Positions 13,646-45,726 of a DNA stretch of 64,000 nucleotides are shown in pieces. This stretch comes from Verrucomicrobiia bacterium. GTDB taxonomy: Bacteria; Methylomirabilota; Methylomirabilia; Rokubacteriales; CSP1-6. Position 1 is the stretch's first letter. Every line of letters begins with the position of its first letter. The position numbers and the translations under genes were made by a program. The stretch is taken from assembly GCA_035495415.1 (NCBI GenBank), contig DATJFY010000071.1, forward strand, positions 1,257 to 65,256. Direction: 5' to 3'. The notes under the pieces were generated by a model. The model did no database searches, was not told the DNA's origin, and saw only the letters and a list, made by a program, of their open reading frames with translations.

Positions 13646-14662
13646 ATGCCTCAACCTCTGGTCACCATCGTCGTCGTGCCGCGCGAGCGGTTCAGCGTCA
13701 GCCAGCGGTCGCTCGAGGCCATCTACGCAAACACTGCACCCCCGTTCGACCTAGTGTACGTCGACGGCGGCTCGCCGTCGCGGATCCGCCGGTATCTCGC
13801 CGATCAGTCCCGGGCCCGAGGCTTCACGCTCGTACGCACTCCGCACCATCTCGTCCCCAATGCCGCGCGGAACCTCGGCGTACGCCACGTCCGGACGCGC
13901 TACGTCGCGTTCATCGACAACGACGCCGTGCCCGCGCCGGGCTGGCTGCCGGCGCTCGTCGAGTGCGCGGAGAGCACCGGCGCCTGGGTGGTGGGCCCGC
14001 TCTACTTCATCGGCGAGCCCGAAGCCCAGAGGATCCACATGGCCGCCGGCGATGCGCGCATCGAGGACCGGCCGAGCGGCCGGCGCTTCATCGAGCGCCA
14101 TCGATTCGCGGACAAGCGGCCCGACGAGGTGCGCGCTCAGCTGGTCCGTCAGCCCTGCGAGCACGTGGAGTTCCACTGCATGCTCGTGCGCACGGAGGTC
14201 TTCGAGCGGCTGGGCCCGCTCGACGAGCAGCTCAAGAGCATCGCCGAGCACACCGATCTCTGCCTGCTCGTGCGCCGTGAGGGCGGCACGGTGTACTTCG
14301 AGCCGGCGTCGGCGGTGACCTACATCACGAGCGGCGGCTTCACCGCGGCGGACTACGCCTACTTCGCCCGGCGCTGGAGCCGCGCCTGGAACCAGACGTC
14401 TCTCGAGCACTTCCGCACCAAGTGGGATCTGCCCCCCGGCGAGGCAGGGCTGGCCTCGATCGCGCGCTGGTCGGAGGCGCACCGCCACATCCCACTTCGG
14501 CCGATGCTCCGCGCGCTCGAGCGCGGGCTCGGGTGGCGATGCGGAGGCTGGCTGGGGCGTCGGCTCCTCGCCGTGGAGGGCCAGCTGAACCGCTGGTGGG
14601 AGCCGATTCCGGGCGGCGCCTCCCGCTCGGCCGGCCCCGTCGCGGAGCGCGCGAACGTCTGA
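13646..14662 (+). CDS. Glycosyltransferase family 2
   Basis: VTIVVVPRERFS..., VYVDGGSPS, AFIDNDAVPAPGWL (DxD-like). Alternative starts at 13628 and 13631. Confidence 0.8.
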   Translation: MPQPLVTIVVVPRERFSVSQRSLEAIYANTAPPFDLVYVDGGSPSRIRRYLADQSRARGFTLVRTPHHLVPNAARNLGVRHVRTRYVAFIDNDAVPAPGWLPALVECAESTGAWVVGPLYFIGEPEAQRIHMAAGDARIEDRPSGRRFIERHRFADKRPDEVRAQLVRQPCEHVEFHCMLVRTEVFERLGPLDEQLKSIAEHTDLCLLVRREGGTVYFEPASAVTYITSGGFTAADYAYFARRWSRAWNQTSLEHFRTKWDLPPGEAGLASIARWSEAHRHIPLRPMLRALERGLGWRCGGWLGRRLLAVEGQLNRWWEPIPGGASRSAGPVAERANV

Positions 14663-14665
14663 GCC

Positions 14666-15394
14666 ATGTTCACCTACGCCCAGACCAACCTGCAGCTCTA
14701 TCGGCAGCTCGAGGCGGAGGGCTACGCCGCCGTCGACGTCGAAACGGTGGCGCGGGCCCACGAAATGGCGCTGCGCCTCTTTCCCGGCATCTACCGCGGC
14801 TCCGGCAAGCCCTTCCTCTCCCATCTCGTGGGCACGGCGAGCGTGCTCGCGTCCCTTCGCGCGCGCGTCCCCCTGGTGATCACCGGCCTCCTCCACGCCG
14901 TCTACACCCATGGGGAGTTCGGCACTGGCTGGCGTGGCATGAGCGAGGTCAAGCGGGCGAAGGTCCGCGGGGACGTCGGGGAGGAGATCGAGGATCTGAT
15001 CGCGCGCTATACCCGGCTCACGTGGAAGCCGAAGACCCTCCCGGCCATTCGCGCGGGGCTCGACGCGATGAGCCCGCTCGAGCGGGACGTGGTGCTGGTG
15101 CGGTTGGCCAACGAGCTCGAGGATCACCTCGACCTGGGCATCCTCTATGCGGCGGACTACGAGCGCCGCCGCGCCTTCATGCAGACCGACCTCCCCGCGG
15201 TCGTGGAGATGGCGGAGCGCCTCGGCGCGCCCACCCTTGCCAAGGCGCTCGTCCAGACCTTCGCGGATGTTTCGAGCGCCCGCGTGAGCCTGGCGCTCCG
15301 CCGCCCGCACGACGAGTCGTTCCAGATCCCGCTCGCCTCGCATCGGCCCCGGCTCCGCGTGGCGTTGAGCCATCTCCTCGCCCGCTGGCGCTGA
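14666..15394 (+). CDS. Hypothetical protein with degenerate RelA/SpoT-type HD-domain-like N-terminus
   Basis: 242 aa. GSGKPFLSHLVGTASVL ... GLLHAVYTHGE resembles the SGEPY..HP..VA / LLHD pattern, but with HA in place of HD. Confidence 0.55.
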   Translation: MFTYAQTNLQLYRQLEAEGYAAVDVETVARAHEMALRLFPGIYRGSGKPFLSHLVGTASVLASLRARVPLVITGLLHAVYTHGEFGTGWRGMSEVKRAKVRGDVGEEIEDLIARYTRLTWKPKTLPAIRAGLDAMSPLERDVVLVRLANELEDHLDLGILYAADYERRRAFMQTDLPAVVEMAERLGAPTLAKALVQTFADVSSARVSLALRRPHDESFQIPLASHRPRLRVALSHLLARWR

Positions 15395-15408
15395 CCGGCT
15401 CGCCGAGC

Positions 15409-15438
15409 TTGACGCAGCGGGACGGCTCGGTCGATGAT
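15409..15438 (+). promoter_or_regulatory. Candidate sigma-70 promoter for the nitrile hydratase genes (TTGACG-N18-GATGAT)
   Basis: TTGACG at 15409..15414 and GATGAT at 15433..15438. SD GAGGAG lies 6 nt before the ATG at 15457. Confidence 0.3.
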
Positions 15439-15456
15439 GCCTGACGAGGAGAGCCC

Positions 15457-16146
15457 ATGGACGGCGTCCACGATCTCGGCGGCATGCACGGATTCGGCCC
15501 GGTGGAGCGAGAGGCGAACGAGCCCCCGTTCCACGAGCCGTGGGAAGCCGCCGTCTACGCCATCATGCGCGCGAGCCTGAGCACCGGGCAGTACAATCTC
15601 GACGAATTTCGTCATGGCGTCGAGCGGATGGACCCCGCGCACTATCTCCGCTCCGGTTACTACGAGCACTGGCTGGACGGTATCGCCCGTGTCCTGGTCG
15701 AGAAGGGCGTTGTGGCCAGCGACGAGCTCGCCGCGCGCACTGCGTTCTTCGCGGATCATCCCGACGCCCCGGCGACCGCGGCGGTGCGGGCCATGCCCGC
15801 CACGCCGCCTCCGCGCATCCGGTGGCTCGCCCTCGACTCCGAGCGCCCGGCCACGCAGGCGCCGCGCTTCGCGGTGGGCGACGCCGTCATCACGCGCAAC
15901 ATCCATCCGACCGGACACACGCGGCTCCCACGATATGCGCGGGGCAAGCGAGGCATGATCCACCGCCAGCACGGCGCCCATGTCTTCCCCGACAGCAACG
16001 CGCACGGCGGGGGCGAGCAGCCGCAGACGCTCTACAGCGTCCGCTTCGACGCGCGGGAGCTGTGGGGGCCCGCGGCGGAGCCGAACCAGCACGTCTACAT
16101 CGATCTCTGGGAGCCGTATCTCGAGCCGGGAGCCGCCCGTGGGTAA
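15457..16146 (+). CDS. nthB: Nitrile hydratase beta subunit
   Basis: 229 aa. Hallmark N-terminus [16 protein letters not shown]. Followed directly by the alpha subunit. Confidence 0.9.
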
Positions 16147-39818: not shown

Positions 39819-40700
39819 ATGCATGTCGGCTTCGTCGGGACTGGAAACATGGGCCGCCCCATGGCGGCGAACATCCTCAAGGCCGGTCACGCGCTGACCG
39901 TGTTCGATCTGAATCCCGCCGCGACGGCTCCGCTCGAGAAAGCGGGCGCCGCGCGGGCCGCCGGCCTCCAGGCCCTGGCGTCATCGGTACGGGTGACCCT
40001 CATGAGCCTGCCCGATGCGAAGGCGGTCGAAGCGGCGCTGTTCGGGGCCGGCGGCGCGGCCGGCTTGATGACCGGCGCCCAGGCGGGCGATTTCATCTTC
40101 GATCTCTCGACGGTCGGGCCCGCCAGCACACGGGCCCTGGCTGCCCGGGCGGCCCAGCAGGGTGTGCGGCTGGTCGACGCGCCGGTGAGCGGCAGCGTGA
40201 GCGGCGCCGAGTCGGGGACGCTCGCGGTGATGATCGGGGCGCCCGAATCCGATGTGAAGGCATTCGAGCCGATCTTCCGCGCCATCGGCAAGAGCCTCTT
40301 CTTCCTGGGCGAGGTGGGGAAGGGGAACATCCTCAAGCTCCTCAATAACTACGTCGCCCTCACCAATCAAGCGGCGCTGTGCGAGGCCATGGCCCTGGCC
40401 GACCGTCTCGGCGTCTCCCGCCAGACCGTGGGCGACGTGGTCGGCAAGAGCTCCGGCGCCAGCTTCATCCTCGAGCGGAAGCTCGCGGCGCTGGTGAAGC
40501 ACGACTACCGCCCCGGCTTCTTCGTGGACCTGGCCCGCAAGGACCTCGGCCTCGGCCTCGACCTCATGGCAGAGACCAAGGGCGATAGCTCGGTGGGACG
40601 GGCGGCGTGGCAACTCTACGAGCGGGCGAGCGAGGCGGGGCTGGGGAAGCTCGACACGTGCGGCCTGCTGGGGCTGCTGGAGCCCCAGCCTACTCCTTGA
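39819..40700 (+). CDS. NAD(P)-dependent oxidoreductase, 3-hydroxyisobutyrate dehydrogenase family
   Basis: 293 aa. VGFVGTGNMGRPMAANI, DAPVSGSVSGAESGTLAVMIG, GKGNILKLLNN. Confidence 0.9.
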   Translation: MHVGFVGTGNMGRPMAANILKAGHALTVFDLNPAATAPLEKAGAARAAGLQALASSVRVTLMSLPDAKAVEAALFGAGGAAGLMTGAQAGDFIFDLSTVGPASTRALAARAAQQGVRLVDAPVSGSVSGAESGTLAVMIGAPESDVKAFEPIFRAIGKSLFFLGEVGKGNILKLLNNYVALTNQAALCEAMALADRLGVSRQTVGDVVGKSSGASFILERKLAALVKHDYRPGFFVDLARKDLGLGLDLMAETKGDSSVGRAAWQLYERASEAGLGKLDTCGLLGLLEPQPTP

Positions 40701-41769
40701 TCTGCCGCTCCCGTCGCTGGAGATAGGCATTGCGCACCGCGGTGTAGAGATCCACCGTGGTCTCCTCGACGCCCTCGAACGCTTCGAGGCTGAGCGACCG
40801 ATCATTGATGATGTTGACGACCTTGAGGATCAACCGCGTCGGGATGAATCCTACGATGTAGCCCAGCGGATCCATGGCGCTGTCCACGCCGATGCCGATG
40901 CCGTCGCGGACGGTCATGGGCGGTAGGAACGGTACGACTAGGTAGGGTCCCGGCCCCACCCCCCAGAGTCCGAGCGTCTGGCCGAAGTCCTCCTTGCTCG
41001 GCTCGATGCCCCATTCCTGCTTGGCCATGTCCCAGAGCCCGCCGATCCCGATCGTGGAGTTGATCAGGAAGCGCGCAACTTCGCGGCCGGCGCCCGCCCA
41101 CTTGCCCTGGAGGAGGTTGTTCACGAATCGCGGCACGAAGGTGACGTTCTGAAAGCCGCGGTCGATCATGCGCTGGACTTCATCCGGGACGATGAAGTTG
41201 TAGCCCTGCGCGATGGGCTTGAGCACGTACTTGTCGACTTTGTAGTTGAACGTGAACATCTTCTCGTTGAACTTTTCCCAGGGGTCGTACTCCTCGAGCG
41301 GCGGCTCCAGCGGCGGGCCACTCTCGCGACCGGTCTGGGCAACCGTCATCGTCTCGACGAGCGCCATCAGGTAGGGCGTCATCGACGTGTCGGTGATCGA
41401 GGCCATCGGCAGCAGCTCGGACTCGCGCTCGGTGGCGGCCGGGGCGCCGACGATGGGCTCGGCCGTCGCCATCACGACCTCGTCCCGCGGTGGCGTGGCG
41501 CCGCCCCCCACGAGGGACTCGGGATTCGCCGGCGCGGCTTCAACCGGGGGCCCGCCGACGGCCGGGTCGGGGGCGGCCTTGGACTCGGGGGCCACGACGG
41601 TCGCGGTCAAAAGGGCTTCCGTGCCGGCATGGAGGCCCCCCGACACCGAGCCGCAGCCACCGACCGAGAGGCCCACCAGGAGGAACAGCGTCCCCAGGAC
41701 GGCTCCGAGGGCATGTCGCCCGGGGATCTTTCGCTCAGCGATGACCGGTGCAGAAATGTCCGACTTCAC
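40690..41769 (-). CDS. mlaA: MlaA/VacJ-family outer-membrane lipoprotein with long low-complexity linker
   Basis: GTG at 41769. Lipobox LSVGGC. ~140-aa Ala/Pro-rich linker. VacJ core DPWEKFNEKMFTFN...FQNVTFVPRFVNNLLQGK...INSTIGIGGLWD...GPYLVVPFLPP. Confidence 0.8.
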   Translation of the reverse strand: MKSDISAPVIAERKIPGRHALGAVLGTLFLLVGLSVGGCGSVSGGLHAGTEALLTATVVAPESKAAPDPAVGGPPVEAAPANPESLVGGGATPPRDEVVMATAEPIVGAPAATERESELLPMASITDTSMTPYLMALVETMTVAQTGRESGPPLEPPLEEYDPWEKFNEKMFTFNYKVDKYVLKPIAQGYNFIVPDEVQRMIDRGFQNVTFVPRFVNNLLQGKWAGAGREVARFLINSTIGIGGLWDMAKQEWGIEPSKEDFGQTLGLWGVGPGPYLVVPFLPPMTVRDGIGIGVDSAMDPLGYIVGFIPTRLILKVVNIINDRSLSLEAFEGVEETTVDLYTAVRNAYLQRRERQIKE

Positions 41770-41833
41770 TCGCTCTCTGACTCTCCCACCATCCAGGCAT
41801 TCAGCGCCGGTCGCCCGGCGCAAACAAGCAACG

Positions 41834-41852
41834 GGGGTGCCCAGGGCACCCC
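41834..41852. repeat. Perfect 19-bp palindrome GGGGTGCCC-A-GGGCACCCC
   Basis: Located in the divergent mlaA / KAS III intergenic region, ~60 bp upstream of the candidate -35. Confidence 0.6.
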
Positions 41853-41913
41853 GCGGCGATACTCGCACCCATGCGGTCGACGTGGCAAGCGTTTTCCTGG
41901 TTGGGGAGCGGCG

Positions 41914-41942
41914 TTGACAGCCCCTGGAGCCGGCGGTAGGGT
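41914..41942 (+). promoter_or_regulatory. Candidate sigma-70 promoter TTGACA-N17-TAGGGT
   Basis: TTGACA at 41914..41919 and TAGGGT at 41937..41942. SD GGGAGG lies 7 nt before the ATG at 41970. Confidence 0.4.
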
Positions 41943-41969
41943 TCCGCCAGACGCGCCGGGAGGCCAGGC

Positions 41970-43826
41970 ATGAAGCCATTCGTCGTCAACCGCTACGGCC
42001 GGATCGTCTTCCCCGAGAGCTTCTTCCCCGAGCTCGACTTTTCGGTGTTCGAGACGCTCGAGCAGTTCGCGGCCGTCATCAAGCGCGACTTCGAGGAAAA
42101 GGCCCCCAGCGAGACGGACATGGTCGCGCGCATCGAGGCCCGGACCTACGGCGGGCGCTATGAGCTCTTGCGCGACCTCGCCCTGAACCTCTTCTGGGTG
42201 AATCGCTATGCGATGACGATGTACGAGAAGCGTCCCACACGCTGGCGCGACGTGGCCCGGCAGCGCGATGACGTGTTCCTCCCCGTCTTCAAGCCGTGGG
42301 ACGGGGCCGAGCTCACCGCGGCGATCGAGGCCGGCTACCGTGGGCTCGGGCCGTCGTGGGACGAGGGTACCGAGAACAAGATCTTCCGCATCCTCCTCGA
42401 TGTATTCCGCCACAAGAAGGGCGCGGGCGCGGAGCTTCCCGCCATCAAGCCCACGGTGGCCGAGCTCCTGGGGAGCCCCAAAAGCCTCACCTATCACCTG
42501 CTCGCGTACAATCCCGACTTCCCCGGCTATGGCTACAACGACATCATCGAGTACGCGCACACGGTGCCGGAGCTCGAGGCGGTGATGCGGCAGGCGATGG
42601 TGCTCCACAACCAGTACCGATGGGACCGCGCGCGCACGCGCCTCACCGAGGTCGGCCAGCTCCACGACGACGACTACGTGGTGGTGTTCCATCCCCGCAA
42701 CGACGACGTGCTCGACTTCATCCGGCGGGTCAAGACCGGCCGCCGCGGCCGCCCGCGCCGGCCCGCTCCCAGCGAGTCCCGCCCCCCGCAGTCGCCCTAT
42801 CCGCCGGTGACGGTGGCGAAGCGCTTCAGCGTCCTCCCGCGCCTGGAGGCGCTGGCCGTCTACAAGGGGGAGCGCGCGTGCACCAACGAAGACTTGATCC
42901 GCAACGCGGCCTACTGCTGGTCGCCGATGAGCGCGGAGGAGATCGAGCGCAAGACCGGCATCACCCAGCGGCTCTACACCGAGCTGGACCTCGACCACAT
43001 TGCGCTCCTCGCCGCCCGCCGGGCCCTCGAGAAGTCCGGGCGCCGGCCGGAGGAGATTGGCGCGGTGCTCTTCTGCTCGTGCACGAGCGTGAAGATGATG
43101 CCCTCGCTGGCGACCTGGCTGTCGAGCCAGCTCGGCATCTTCCAGACCCGGGCCTCGCTCGACATGGTGGCGGCCTGCGCGGGGCTGCCGTACGGCCTTT
43201 CCGAGGCGGTGCGCCTGCTCCAGGAGACGGAGCGGCCGGTGCTCGTCGTGTGCGGTGAGAAATTCTCCGACAAGATCGGAACCGTGCGAACGTCACGCAT
43301 GATCTTTGCCGATGGCGCGGCGGCGATGATCCTGGCGCCGGCGCCGCCGGGCGCGCCGTCGGACATCGAGGTCTACCAGACCTATGCGTCCGGGCCGGTG
43401 TCGGAGGTGGATTCGATCATCTGGCCCAATCCCGAGTTCGACAACAACATCACCGTGTTCGGCCCCCAGGTGCGCGCGCTCGCGAAGCGGTACTTGAGCC
43501 AGATGATCGACGAGATGCGCGAGCTTCCCAATACCGAAGGCGGCGCGGGGTCGCTGCTGGAGGCGGTGGATCTCATCGTGCCGCATCAGGCCAACAAGAC
43601 CATGGTGATCCATCTCGCGAAGGGCGCAGGGGTCGGCGCGGACCGCCTGTACTTCAACATCCGCTCGGTGGGCAACACCTCGTCGGCGAGCATTCCCATC
43701 GCCATTCACGACGCGGTGCAGGAAGGTGTCATCAACCGGCCCATGCGCATCTTTGCCCCGGGCTTTGGCGCGGGGGCGGTGGCCGGGTACGTGGTGATGC
43801 GGCTGGATCCCTCCGTGGTCGCGTGA
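41970..43826 (+). CDS. Fusion protein: ~290-aa domain of unknown function plus FabH-like 3-oxoacyl-ACP synthase III (KAS III)
   Basis: 618 aa. C-terminal half carries the KAS III triad contexts DMVAACAGLPYG (Cys), VPHQANK (His), VGNTSSASIP (Asn). I could not recognise a family for the N-terminal half (MKPFVVNRYGRIVFPESFFPELDF...). An Arg/Pro-rich linker (GRRGRPRRPAPSESRPPQSPYPP) joins them. Confidence 0.85.
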   Translation: MKPFVVNRYGRIVFPESFFPELDFSVFETLEQFAAVIKRDFEEKAPSETDMVARIEARTYGGRYELLRDLALNLFWVNRYAMTMYEKRPTRWRDVARQRDDVFLPVFKPWDGAELTAAIEAGYRGLGPSWDEGTENKIFRILLDVFRHKKGAGAELPAIKPTVAELLGSPKSLTYHLLAYNPDFPGYGYNDIIEYAHTVPELEAVMRQAMVLHNQYRWDRARTRLTEVGQLHDDDYVVVFHPRNDDVLDFIRRVKTGRRGRPRRPAPSESRPPQSPYPPVTVAKRFSVLPRLEALAVYKGERACTNEDLIRNAAYCWSPMSAEEIERKTGITQRLYTELDLDHIALLAARRALEKSGRRPEEIGAVLFCSCTSVKMMPSLATWLSSQLGIFQTRASLDMVAACAGLPYGLSEAVRLLQETERPVLVVCGEKFSDKIGTVRTSRMIFADGAAAMILAPAPPGAPSDIEVYQTYASGPVSEVDSIIWPNPEFDNNITVFGPQVRALAKRYLSQMIDEMRELPNTEGGAGSLLEAVDLIVPHQANKTMVIHLAKGAGVGADRLYFNIRSVGNTSSASIPIAIHDAVQEGVINRPMRIFAPGFGAGAVAGYVVMRLDPSVVA

Positions 43827-44455
43827 GTCCTGCGCGCGCGGGCGCCCGCTCGCTCCTCCTCGTCCACGGCGCGGGCAGCGGGCCGTGGGTGTTCGACAGC
43901 TGGCCCGCCTCCTTTCCCTCGGGGCAGCGTCTCGAGACGGTCGATCTGCACGAGGGCCTCGACCCTGCGCACGCGACGATGGCGCAGTACGCCGAGGCGG
44001 TCGCCCACGCCGCCGCGCGCCTCGACCGGCCCCTCGTCGTGGTGGCCTGGAGCATGGGCGGCCTCGCCGCGATGATGGCCGCCGACTGCGCGGACGGGCT
44101 GGTGCTGCTCGAGGCGAGCGCGCCCGCGGAAGTGCAGGGCGTGCACCGAGACCTGCGGCCGGCGCCCGGGGTCTTCGATCCCGAAGCCGAGTACGGGGCC
44201 TTTCCGGAGGGAGTCCGCGCGCGGCCGGAGTCGGCGCTCGCGCGAGCCGAGCGCAAGCGGGGCGTCTCGGTGCCGGAGCTCCCGTGTCCGACCCTGGTGG
44301 TGTACGGCGACGAGTATGCGGAAGAGCGCGGCCGTCGGCTCGTGGCGCGTTACGGGACGCACGAGCTGGCGTTGCCCGGCAAATCCCACTGGGATCTCGT
44401 GCGGGATCCCGAGGCGGTGCGCGCCATCGCCATGCGGATCGCGGCGCTCTTCTGA
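43823..44455 (+). CDS. Alpha/beta-fold hydrolase
   Basis: 210 aa. GTG overlaps the KAS III stop (GTGA). LLLVHGAGSG and nucleophile elbow AWSMGG. Candidate catalytic His near the C-terminus (GKSHWD). Confidence 0.8.
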   Translation: MSPARAGARSLLLVHGAGSGPWVFDSWPASFPSGQRLETVDLHEGLDPAHATMAQYAEAVAHAAARLDRPLVVVAWSMGGLAAMMAADCADGLVLLEASAPAEVQGVHRDLRPAPGVFDPEAEYGAFPEGVRARPESALARAERKRGVSVPELPCPTLVVYGDEYAEERGRRLVARYGTHELALPGKSHWDLVRDPEAVRAIAMRIAALF

Positions 44456-44475: not shown

Positions 44476-44516
44476 GGGGGGGCGGGAGACATGCTCCCGC
44501 CGGCCCCCCTTTGGTT
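44476..44516 (+). terminator. Rho-independent terminator
   Basis: GGGGGGGCGGGAG-ACATG-CTCCCGCCGGCCCCC (8 + 5 bp stem with a 2-nt bulge), followed by CTTTGGTT. Confidence 0.6.
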
Positions 44517-44736
44517 CGTGCGCGACATACCGTCGCGCGACCCGGCTAGCGTCGGGTTCGGCCTGTGGCCGTGCCGGCGTCACCGGGTCCGGAGTCGCGA
44601 CACATGCGCAACTAGCGCGGAGCCGGTGACGCAGCCATCGAGTCCGGCGGCGTCTCCATGGTGAATGCATCTGGCGCCCTCGCCGCTGCGGTGTCAAGGG
44701 GCTCATGCCGCGAAGCGGCGTAGTACACTCCCCGGC

Positions 44737-45726
44737 ATGCTCACCATGACCAAGCGCGCGCGTATTGCCGCCGCGATCGCGGGCCAGCCCGTGGACCGCG
44801 TGCCCGTGGCCTTCTGGCGTCACGTCCCCGACGTCGACCACACGGCGAAGGGTCTCGCCGATGCGATGCTGGCGTTTCACCGCCGCTGGGACCTCGATCT
44901 CATCAAGATCATGTCGAGCGGCGTCTACTGCGTGGAGGACTGGGGCTGCCGGGTCGCCTATCAGGGCTCGCCCAACGGCGCCAAGAGCTGCACCGAGCAC
45001 GCGGTGAAGACCACGGCCGACTGGGCGCGGCTCACGCTCCTGGATCCCGGCGCGGGCGCGCTCGGCCGCGAGCTGGAAGCCCTACGGCTGATCGTGAAGG
45101 GACGCGCCGACGACGCGCCGGCGCTTCACACGATCTTCTCGCCGCTCACGATCGCGCGGAAGCTCGCGGGTGATCGCCTCGATGCCGACCTCGCCGCCGC
45201 GCCGGCCGCGGTGGAAGCGGCGCTCGAGACGATCGCGACCACCGTGACGCGGTACGCGGCGGCCGCGCGCGCGGCGGGCGCGGACGGCTTCTTCTTCGCG
45301 ACTCAGCACGCGAGCCGGGACGCCCTCTCCGAGCCCGTCTTCCAACGTTACGAGCTGCCCTACATGCGGCGCATTCTCGAGCAACTCACGGCGGGCGGCG
45401 GGCTCACCATGCTGCACCTCCACGGCAGGGACATCTACTTCGACGCCTGCGCGGACCTGCCCGCCGCCATCCTCAACTGGCACGATCGTCTCACCGGTCC
45501 CGCGCTCGCCGAGGGCAAGCGCCGCGGCGCCGTGGCGGCGGGACTGGGCGAGGCGGGGACCCTCCGAAAGGGACCCGTGGAGTCGGTGCGTGCGGAGGCG
45601 ACCGACGCGCTCGCCCAGACGGGCGGGCGCGGCCACGTACTCACCACCGGATGTGTGCTCCCCCTCGACGTGCCCGACGCGCATCTTCAGGCGGTGCTCG
45701 ACGCCGCGCGGAGCTTCCGCGCATGA
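44737..45726 (+). CDS. Uroporphyrinogen-decarboxylase (URO-D) family protein (MtaA/CmuA-like fold)
   Basis: 329 aa. RVPVAFWRH, DLIKIMSSG, FFFATQHASRD, MLHLHG, VLTTGCVLPLD. Family-level call only. Confidence 0.7.
   Translation: MLTMTKRARIAAAIAGQPVDRVPVAFWRHVPDVDHTAKGLADAMLAFHRRWDLDLIKIMSSGVYCVEDWGCRVAYQGSPNGAKSCTEHAVKTTADWARLTLLDPGAGALGRELEALRLIVKGRADDAPALHTIFSPLTIARKLAGDRLDADLAAAPAAVEAALETIATTVTRYAAAARAAGADGFFFATQHASRDALSEPVFQRYELPYMRRILEQLTAGGGLTMLHLHGRDIYFDACADLPAAILNWHDRLTGPALAEGKRRGAVAAGLGEAGTLRKGPVESVRAEATDALAQTGGRGHVLTTGCVLPLDVPDAHLQAVLDAARSFRA

Follow-up and report, generated by a model that had tools for sequence, protein, structure and literature searches.

The stretch of DNA analysed here, hereafter the window, comprises 64,000 nucleotides of contig DATJFY010000071.1 (assembly GCA_035495415.1, positions 1,257 to 65,256 of the forward strand) from a bacterium of the Rokubacteriales, phylum Methylomirabilota, and carries on its plus strand an open reading frame (ORF, 41970..43826) for a 618-amino acid (aa) two-domain protein. 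An orphan N-terminal domain (residues 1-260, 41970..42749), mixed α/β and of no known family or fold, is followed by an Arg/Pro-rich linker (residues 261-288, 42750..42833, delimited by structural models and alignment) with a conserved PYPPV motif at its end, and then by a condensing domain of the β-ketoacyl-acyl carrier protein synthase III type (KAS III, FabH-like; residues 289-618, 42834..43823, delimited by Pfam and by FabH structures). The catalytic codons, all on the plus strand, are those for Cys403 (43176-43178), His539 (43584-43586) and Asn569 (43674-43676). The stop of this ORF shares four bases, GTGA, with the start of a second plus-strand ORF (43823..44455) that encodes a 210-aa thioesterase-like α/β hydrolase, assigned to Abhydrolase_6 by Pfam and with the nucleophile Ser77 in the motif AWSMGG. 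An earlier note on this DNA had described both ORFs and their overlap, which are present at 41970-43826 and 43823-44455, and had suggested that the pair could be a compact pathway to a lipid-derived metabolite; comparison with related loci leads us to a different reading, which is built around the fusion protein.

The KAS III domain is recognised by Pfam in the C-terminal half of the protein only (ACP_syn_III at residues 397-458, ACP_syn_III_C at residues 530-611). Cys403, His539 and Asn569 align to Cys112, His244 and Asn274 of solved FabH structures, and the triad is invariant in 68 homologous sequences, so that the complete FabH-like domain proposed from the sequence is borne out. FabH is the top match by both sequence and fold: FabH structures match the domain with an E-value of 1e-33 at approximately 26-28% identity, a Foldseek search of the Protein Data Bank (PDB) with the whole model returns FabH-type chains only (TM-score of about 0.8 on the target), and the motifs HQAN and GNTS(S/A)AS are shared. 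Nevertheless, the domain scores under every NCBIfam FabH cut-off, reaching 167.1 bits against a required 249 (NF006829) and 136.8 against 292 (TIGR00747), while the other FabH of the same genome, encoded in a plsX-fabH-fabD-fabG cluster on contig C44, scores 433 and 423 bits on these two models. Since the genome has this separate canonical cluster, the 618-aa protein is not the housekeeping FabH; its extra domain also sets it apart from single-domain FabH.

The earlier note had pointed to KAS III homologues of the PqsD, OleA and DarB types, which resemble the 618-aa protein in being thiolase-fold condensing enzymes that work outside fatty-acid synthesis. As judged by profile and sequence-search scores rather than by a tree, this kinship is much weaker than that to FabH: in the sequence search of the PDB, PqsD matches at an E-value of 1e-14 and OleA at about 1e-6, and the DarB/StlD model gives 16.5 bits against a cut-off of 450. 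Within 8 kb on each side of the fusion gene there are no oleBCD, pqs or dar partner genes. Olefin synthesis of the OleABCD kind was considered and rejected, given the weak OleA similarity and the lack of OleC and OleD.

The N-terminal region has resisted assignment, as the earlier note had found, despite a confident structural model. Residues 1-290 have no Pfam match even at an E-value of 10 or below and no sequence match in the PDB. AlphaFold2, supplied with 68 homologues, models the full-length protein with a pLDDT of 80.9 and a pTM of 0.81, and the N-terminal domain alone, a mixed α/β fold of approximately 260 aa, with a pLDDT of 83.5 and a pTM of 0.81. A Foldseek search of the PDB with the latter model yields no fold match (best E-value 2.7, TM-score below 0.2). 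The Arg/Pro-rich linker suspected from the sequence does follow the folded domain; it spans about 25 aa, has no regular secondary structure and a reduced pLDDT in the models, and several of its Pro positions are conserved. Among family members at 27-59% identity, the polar and aromatic residues Arg39, Tyr64, Trp76, Arg79, Trp92, Asp94 and Arg207 of the N-terminal domain are invariant. Among 1.84 billion representative proteins, 387 clusters were found to hold this domain, and every complete protein that we inspected from them is fused to KAS III; the domain was not found as a complete protein without KAS III among the full-length cluster members inspected, and the short matches are fragments at contig ends or frameshifted reads. 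As to its role, we can only guess at docking to a carboxylase or to a polyhydroxyalkanoate (PHA) granule, or at CoA substrate binding.

The fusion is genuine, old and widely conserved. More than 100 proteins of 618-619 aa with 80-100% identity are found in Methylomirabilota (Rokubacteria) assemblies, and the identical 618-aa protein is called on at least 23 metagenome contigs. Counted over Methylomirabilota, Acidobacteriota and Actinomycetota together, the fusion is present as one ORF in more than 100 assemblies. A scan of species genomes with a five-sequence alignment of the N-terminal domain detected 249 loci, 80 of which were kept for comparison; in 67 of these 80 a single uninterrupted ORF spans both domains, in independent assemblies from several phyla and in some cases on multi-megabase contigs. 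Three architectures can be distinguished: proteins of approximately 618 aa (618-619) in Methylomirabilota, proteins of approximately 650 aa in Actinomycetota, including the cultured Geodermatophilus ruber and Mycobacterium sp. SM1, and proteins of approximately 890 aa in Acidobacteriota, in which a FabG/PhaB-like short-chain reductase (SDR) is fused at the C-terminus. The acidobacterial SDR scores 297 bits on the 3-oxoacyl-ACP reductase model (ACP, acyl carrier protein) and 287 bits on the acetoacetyl-CoA reductase model. The earlier note had allowed that a sequencing error could have merged the N-terminal region, as a distinct upstream gene, with the condensing enzyme. We found nothing in favour of such an error, of sequencing or of assembly, behind the N-terminal 290 residues. 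The uninterrupted ORFs of independent assemblies and the more than 100 homologues refute this, the fusion is present in cultured Actinobacteria, and the full-length model packs both domains at the pTM given above; we consider such an error to be practically out of the question, and an assembly artefact is excluded.

What the fusion protein may do is suggested by its gene contexts in other lineages. In one Acidobacteriaceae genome, a carboxyltransferase gene (532 aa) is followed by genes for a 133-aa protein, a biotin carrier (128 aa) and the tri-domain enzyme; PhaR and two small proteins come next, and a class III PHA synthase (PhaC) is encoded approximately 5 kb downstream. Across the acidobacterial-type loci, the carboxyltransferase and biotin carrier lie directly upstream in 16 of 20 cases, and PHA genes lie within 8 kb in 13 of 20. 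Two observations on these loci deserve separate mention. In the Acidobacteriaceae locus L087 (5490-7963), the PccB-like carboxyltransferase, the 133-aa protein and the stand-alone biotin carrier are present without a biotin carboxylase in the operon, which would thus either be served by the housekeeping AccC or belong to a transcarboxylase- or decarboxylase-type system. The same locus (14355-15472) and its homologues in 11 acidobacterial loci encode, between PhaR and the class III PhaC, two conserved proteins of 195 and 139 aa that have no Pfam match and could represent a phasin and a divergent PhaE.

In Actinomycetota we examined four loci (G. ruber, Mycobacterium sp. SM1 and two metagenomic contigs). 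All four contain, within 10 kb of the fusion gene, a single-chain acetyl-CoA carboxylase of 1777-1840 aa (biotin carboxylase, biotin carboxyl carrier protein, ACC_central and carboxyltransferase domains), an SDR and a class I PhaC that is translationally coupled to a hydrolase of 250-285 aa. For the G. ruber SDR, the acetoacetyl-CoA reductase model gives the highest score. The genes are arranged in a different order from locus to locus, and a linkage that has outlasted such rearrangement argues for a shared function. In the actinobacterial loci L094 (10950-13432), L096 (11489-13965) and L097 (3215-5754), the class I PhaC gene overlaps an α/β hydrolase gene of 250-275 aa by four bases; this looks like a conserved pair, in which the hydrolase might be a depolymerase or a partner of the synthase.

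In one Methylomirabilota lineage, of another family, the gene for the 618-aa enzyme is preceded by a PhaJ-like MaoC dehydratase gene and a 109-aa ORF and followed by genes for a class III PhaC and a PhaE-like protein, all on the same strand. Physical linkage of the fusion gene to phaC and accessory pha genes is found in this lineage, in 13 of 20 Acidobacteriota loci and in four of four Actinomycetota loci, and it is not found in the window. The genome from which the window derives does have PHA genes: contig C62 carries together an enoyl-CoA hydratase, a FabG/PhaB-like SDR, PhaC, a PhaE-like protein and PhaR. The PhaE-like protein is 58% identical to that of the PHA-linked Methylomirabilota lineage, and the locus contains no thiolase; several carboxyltransferases are encoded elsewhere in this genome. 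The PHA-linked clusters that we examined in Acidobacteriota, Actinomycetota and the one Methylomirabilota lineage contain no thiolase, ACP or FabD. HMG-CoA synthase, HMG-CoA reductase and mevalonate kinase were found neither in the window nor in the Acidobacteriota and Actinomycetota contexts examined. When neighbouring ORFs were clustered over the 80 loci, no neighbour was common to all, and those that recur often in Methylomirabilota (aminotransferases, a TPP enzyme, an FGE-sulfatase) look unrelated.

These contexts, together with individual residues of the condensing domain, bear on the possibility of an ACP-dependent FabH paralogue that would initiate fatty-acid synthesis with a special primer, its N-terminal domain selecting the primer or exerting regulation. 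FabH is, after all, the nearest family by sequence and fold, the catalytic triad is complete, and the equivalent of FabH Arg151 is retained as Arg440. In E. coli FabH, however, Arg249 is an ACP-docking residue, and the corresponding position is Thr544 here and T, A, P or S, but never Arg, in the diverse members inspected. The equivalent of FabH Trp32 is an acidic residue in the fusion family. Phe87, which restricts primer size in E. coli FabH, is replaced by Met or Ile. Taken together, the changes at the Arg249, Trp32 and Phe87 equivalents and the retention of the Arg151 equivalent fit an altered substrate-carrier surface. Besides the loss of the Arg249 and Trp32 equivalents, a FabH paralogue is difficult to reconcile with scores far under all FabH cut-offs, as well as with contexts that, as examined in other lineages, hold carboxylase and PHA genes instead of ACP, FabD or other fab genes. 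In the window, ACP, fab and polyketide synthase (PKS) genes are likewise absent from the 8 kb flanking the fusion gene on each side, as judged by gene calls and Pfam and in agreement with what the earlier note had said. Moreover, a reductase that is fused or adjacent, with neither dehydratase nor enoyl reductase at its side, suits the product of a single round. We therefore regard an ACP-dependent FabH paralogue as quite improbable.

A closer functional parallel is NphT7 of Streptomyces sp. CL190 (EC 2.3.1.194), which has been proposed to convert acetyl-CoA and malonyl-CoA irreversibly into acetoacetyl-CoA (PMC5509993). Like the fusion protein, NphT7 is a KAS III-family enzyme outside a fab cluster and a proposed stand-in for a thiolase at a pathway entry; the two are likened by reaction and not by sequence, and no NphT7 entry appears among the NCBIfam and PDB matches of the 618-aa protein. 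They differ in architecture, NphT7 being single-domain while the fusion family has the obligatory orphan domain of approximately 260 aa and, in Acidobacteria, the fused reductase, and in context, NphT7 being encoded in a mevalonate-pathway cluster while the fusion family is accompanied by acyl-CoA carboxylase and PHA genes rather than HMG-CoA synthase and reductase. Given the different architecture and the absence of a mevalonate context, we do not claim membership of the NphT7 family.

We infer, with moderate confidence, that the 618-aa protein is an NphT7-like, malonyl-CoA-dependent acetoacetyl-CoA synthase that feeds PHA synthesis, with the substrates, the independence of ACP and the PHA link deduced from sequence and comparison. 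An intact Cys-His-Asn triad implies a decarboxylative Claisen condensation, and the recurrence of a carboxylase beside the gene, the lack of ACP and FabD and the fused or adjacent reductase point to malonyl-CoA as the extender and to a single condensation with a subsequent ketoreduction. The primer loaded onto Cys403 would be acetyl-CoA or another short acyl-CoA; malonyl-CoA would be decarboxylated with the aid of His539 and Asn569; and, by analogy with NphT7, acetoacetyl-CoA or another 3-ketoacyl-CoA would be formed. Reduction by an enzyme of the FabG/PhaB type would then yield (R)-3-hydroxyacyl-CoA, that is (R)-3-hydroxybutyryl-CoA from acetoacetyl-CoA, for polymerisation by the PHA synthase. 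This ATP-driven route would replace or supplement the PhaA thiolase. The link to PHA is drawn from the comparative context and is not visible in the window, where the fusion gene is solitary: in this genome, the gene may have drifted away from the SDR/PhaC/PhaE/PhaR locus that now lies on another contig.

The chain length of the product could also be different. A CoA-dependent ketoacyl synthase might use propionyl-CoA or longer primers, or methylmalonyl-CoA, and so provide something other than the C4 precursor of polyhydroxybutyrate (PHB), for PHA copolymers or for another storage or envelope lipid. Three features would agree with such substrates: the PccB type of the carboxyltransferase upstream in Acidobacteria, the proximity of MaoC and enoyl-CoA hydratase genes to PhaC in Methylomirabilota, and Met or Ile in place of Phe87. 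On the other hand, the single-chain carboxylases of Actinobacteria contain ACC_central and resemble malonyl-CoA-forming enzymes, acetoacetyl-CoA reductase and FabG models give the highest scores for the reductases, and the PHA synthases belong to class I or III, which typically accept short-chain monomers. A product other than C4 thus appears unlikely to us, and acetoacetyl-CoA remains our preferred product.

The distribution of the fusion within the phylum was compared with that of PhaC in 251 genomes, of which 99 encode the N-terminal domain and 187 a PhaC homologue. Both are present in 93 genomes, the fusion only in six (five of them less than 90% complete), PhaC only in 94 and neither in 58; PhaC is thus found in 93/99 fusion carriers as compared to 94/152 genomes without the fusion. 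This enrichment agrees with the PHA proposal but is weak evidence.

Several observations weigh against a role of the fusion protein in PHA synthesis. The co-occurrence counts come from related genomes and concern a common trait, PhaC being present in 75% of them. PhaC is present without the fusion in many genomes of the phylum; of 21 genomes from one genus, 19 have PhaC and none the fusion, which means that the fusion enzyme is not essential for PHA in this phylum. Furthermore, the window and 57 of 58 Methylomirabilota loci have no PHA or carboxylase gene nearby, and ordinary thiolases are encoded elsewhere in the genome of the window. Finally, NphT7 works without an extra domain, and the N-terminal domain is thus not accounted for by the proposed reaction.

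The hydrolase gene next door does not belong to the conserved system. The protein is an α/β hydrolase as first described (AWS77MGG; 44.6 bits on Abhydrolase_6, cut-off 26.3), with faint thioesterase- and BioH-like matches (21.8 bits on PF00975; E-values of 0.3-0.7 with Pks13 and DEBS thioesterase domains), and belongs to a broad family of 200-230-aa enzymes. When searched by tblastn against the 80 related loci, it gave one match, a partial one; 79 of the 80 lack it beside the fusion gene. In relatives with 88-92% identity in the fusion protein, its slot is occupied by an ADP-forming acyl-CoA synthetase on the opposite strand, by a large TPR protein or by an unassigned ORF. At locus L004 (10183-12375, minus strand), from a relative at 88% identity, it is the synthetase (CoA_binding, Succ_CoA_lig and ATP-grasp_5 domains) that converges on the fusion gene in this position. 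Conversely, hydrolase homologues at 62-65% identity in Gaiellaceae lie behind a lactamase_B-rhodanese gene with no KAS gene near. Nor can the actinobacterial hydrolases near the fusion gene or PhaC be taken for the same partner: they share with the window hydrolase only the generic nucleophile-elbow region, and no kinship was detectable.

The two genes were originally read as a self-contained pathway, in which KAS III would build a β-keto thioester and the hydrolase would release it as a new lipid-derived signal or metabolite. The four-base overlap does suggest co-translation in this species, the thioesterase-like matches, weak as they are, would suit a releasing enzyme, and the pair is retained on contigs of the same or very close species. 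However, a partner that is missing from almost all related loci, is not syntenic even in close relatives and has its own nearest homologues in unrelated contexts, with no detectably related hydrolase beside the fusion gene or PhaC in Actinobacteria, does not support a discrete two-gene pathway, which we now consider very unlikely. The pair is a species-level juxtaposition and not pathway-defining. In terms of our proposal, the fusion gene of the window would have gained a small thioesterase-like hydrolase as a co-transcribed neighbour from outside the conserved system, and the two genes are probably co-transcribed in this species.

The signals that were thought to delimit this transcription unit fare less well than the ORFs. 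The candidate σ70-like promoter TTGACA-N17-TAGGGT is present upstream of the fusion gene (41914..41946, plus strand), between it and the divergent mlaA gene; the evidence for it is weak, as its -10 element is poor, agreeing with the consensus at 3 of 6 positions, and a consensus promoter scan made no call at this position. Downstream of the hydrolase gene, a GC-rich hairpin followed by TTTGGTT (approximately 44476..44516, plus strand) is a plausible intrinsic terminator of the gene pair. The hairpin and T-tract described as a clear terminator do exist; the fold of -36.5 kcal/mol over 75 nucleotides is, however, no more stable than that of shuffled sequence (z-score -1.27), and a terminator scan did not call it. 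The divergent intergenic region also contains a perfect 19-bp palindrome, GGGGTGCCCTGGGCACCCC (window 41834-41852), which the terminator scan reported as a minus-strand hairpin without a proper T-tract and which could be an operator.

The fusion gene is flanked by genes for a class II ribonucleotide reductase, an NYN protein, a 3-hydroxyisobutyrate-dehydrogenase-like protein, the divergent MlaA, a URO-D/MtaA-like protein and ABC transporters. The MlaA lipoprotein gene (40690..41769, minus strand; 359-aa gene call, Pfam MlaA 3e-70) is syntenic with the fusion gene in the closest Methylomirabilota relatives only, and a functional tie between the two was rejected on this ground. In its longest ORF (window 40690-41979, minus strand), a long Ala/Pro-rich stretch separates the lipobox LSVGGC from the MlaA domain, which begins at about residue 231; this N-terminal spacer is unusually long for MlaA. 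On the other side, window 44665-45726 (plus strand) encodes a URO-D-fold protein that falls short of the cut-offs of the MtaA/CmuA methyltransferase models but scores higher on these than on HemE, and is followed downstream by SBP_bac_5, ABC transporter and PNPOx-like genes.

Textbook PHB synthesis begins with the thermodynamically unfavourable reaction of the PhaA thiolase. The clusters described here share the end of the PhaA-PhaB-PhaC route in three phyla, with genes for a FabG/PhaB-like reductase, PhaC of class I or III, PhaE, PhaR and PhaJ-like proteins, and differ at its beginning, where the thiolase is replaced by a carboxylase and the fusion enzyme; the first step would thereby become irreversible, at a price of one ATP per monomer. 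In the literature that we searched, the NphT7-based malonyl-CoA route to PHB appears only as an engineered pathway and no natural one was found, nor did we find a description of the orphan-domain KAS III family. Taking the comparison one step further, we suggest, as a proposition whose chances we judge to be evenly balanced, that acyl-CoA carboxylase, fusion synthase and reductase constitute a natural, ATP-driven, thiolase-free entry module for PHA across at least three soil-dwelling phyla, with the N-terminal domain as a new fold that tethers or gates the condensing enzyme; it would, for example, dock to the carboxylase or the PHA granule, or substitute for the ACP/CoA recognition surface of FabH.

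The current annotation of the fusion proteins as 3-oxoacyl-ACP synthase III is probably misleading. If our proposal is true, the family would hold a new protein fold with a testable function and ready-made enzymes for bioplastics, including a natural synthase-reductase fusion. It would also change how carbon storage by such bacteria is modelled and how PHA production is predicted from genomes without phaA: abundant, uncultured bacteria of the soil, among Rokubacteria, Acidobacteria and many Actinobacteria, would commit carbon to a storage polymer irreversibly, at the cost of ATP.

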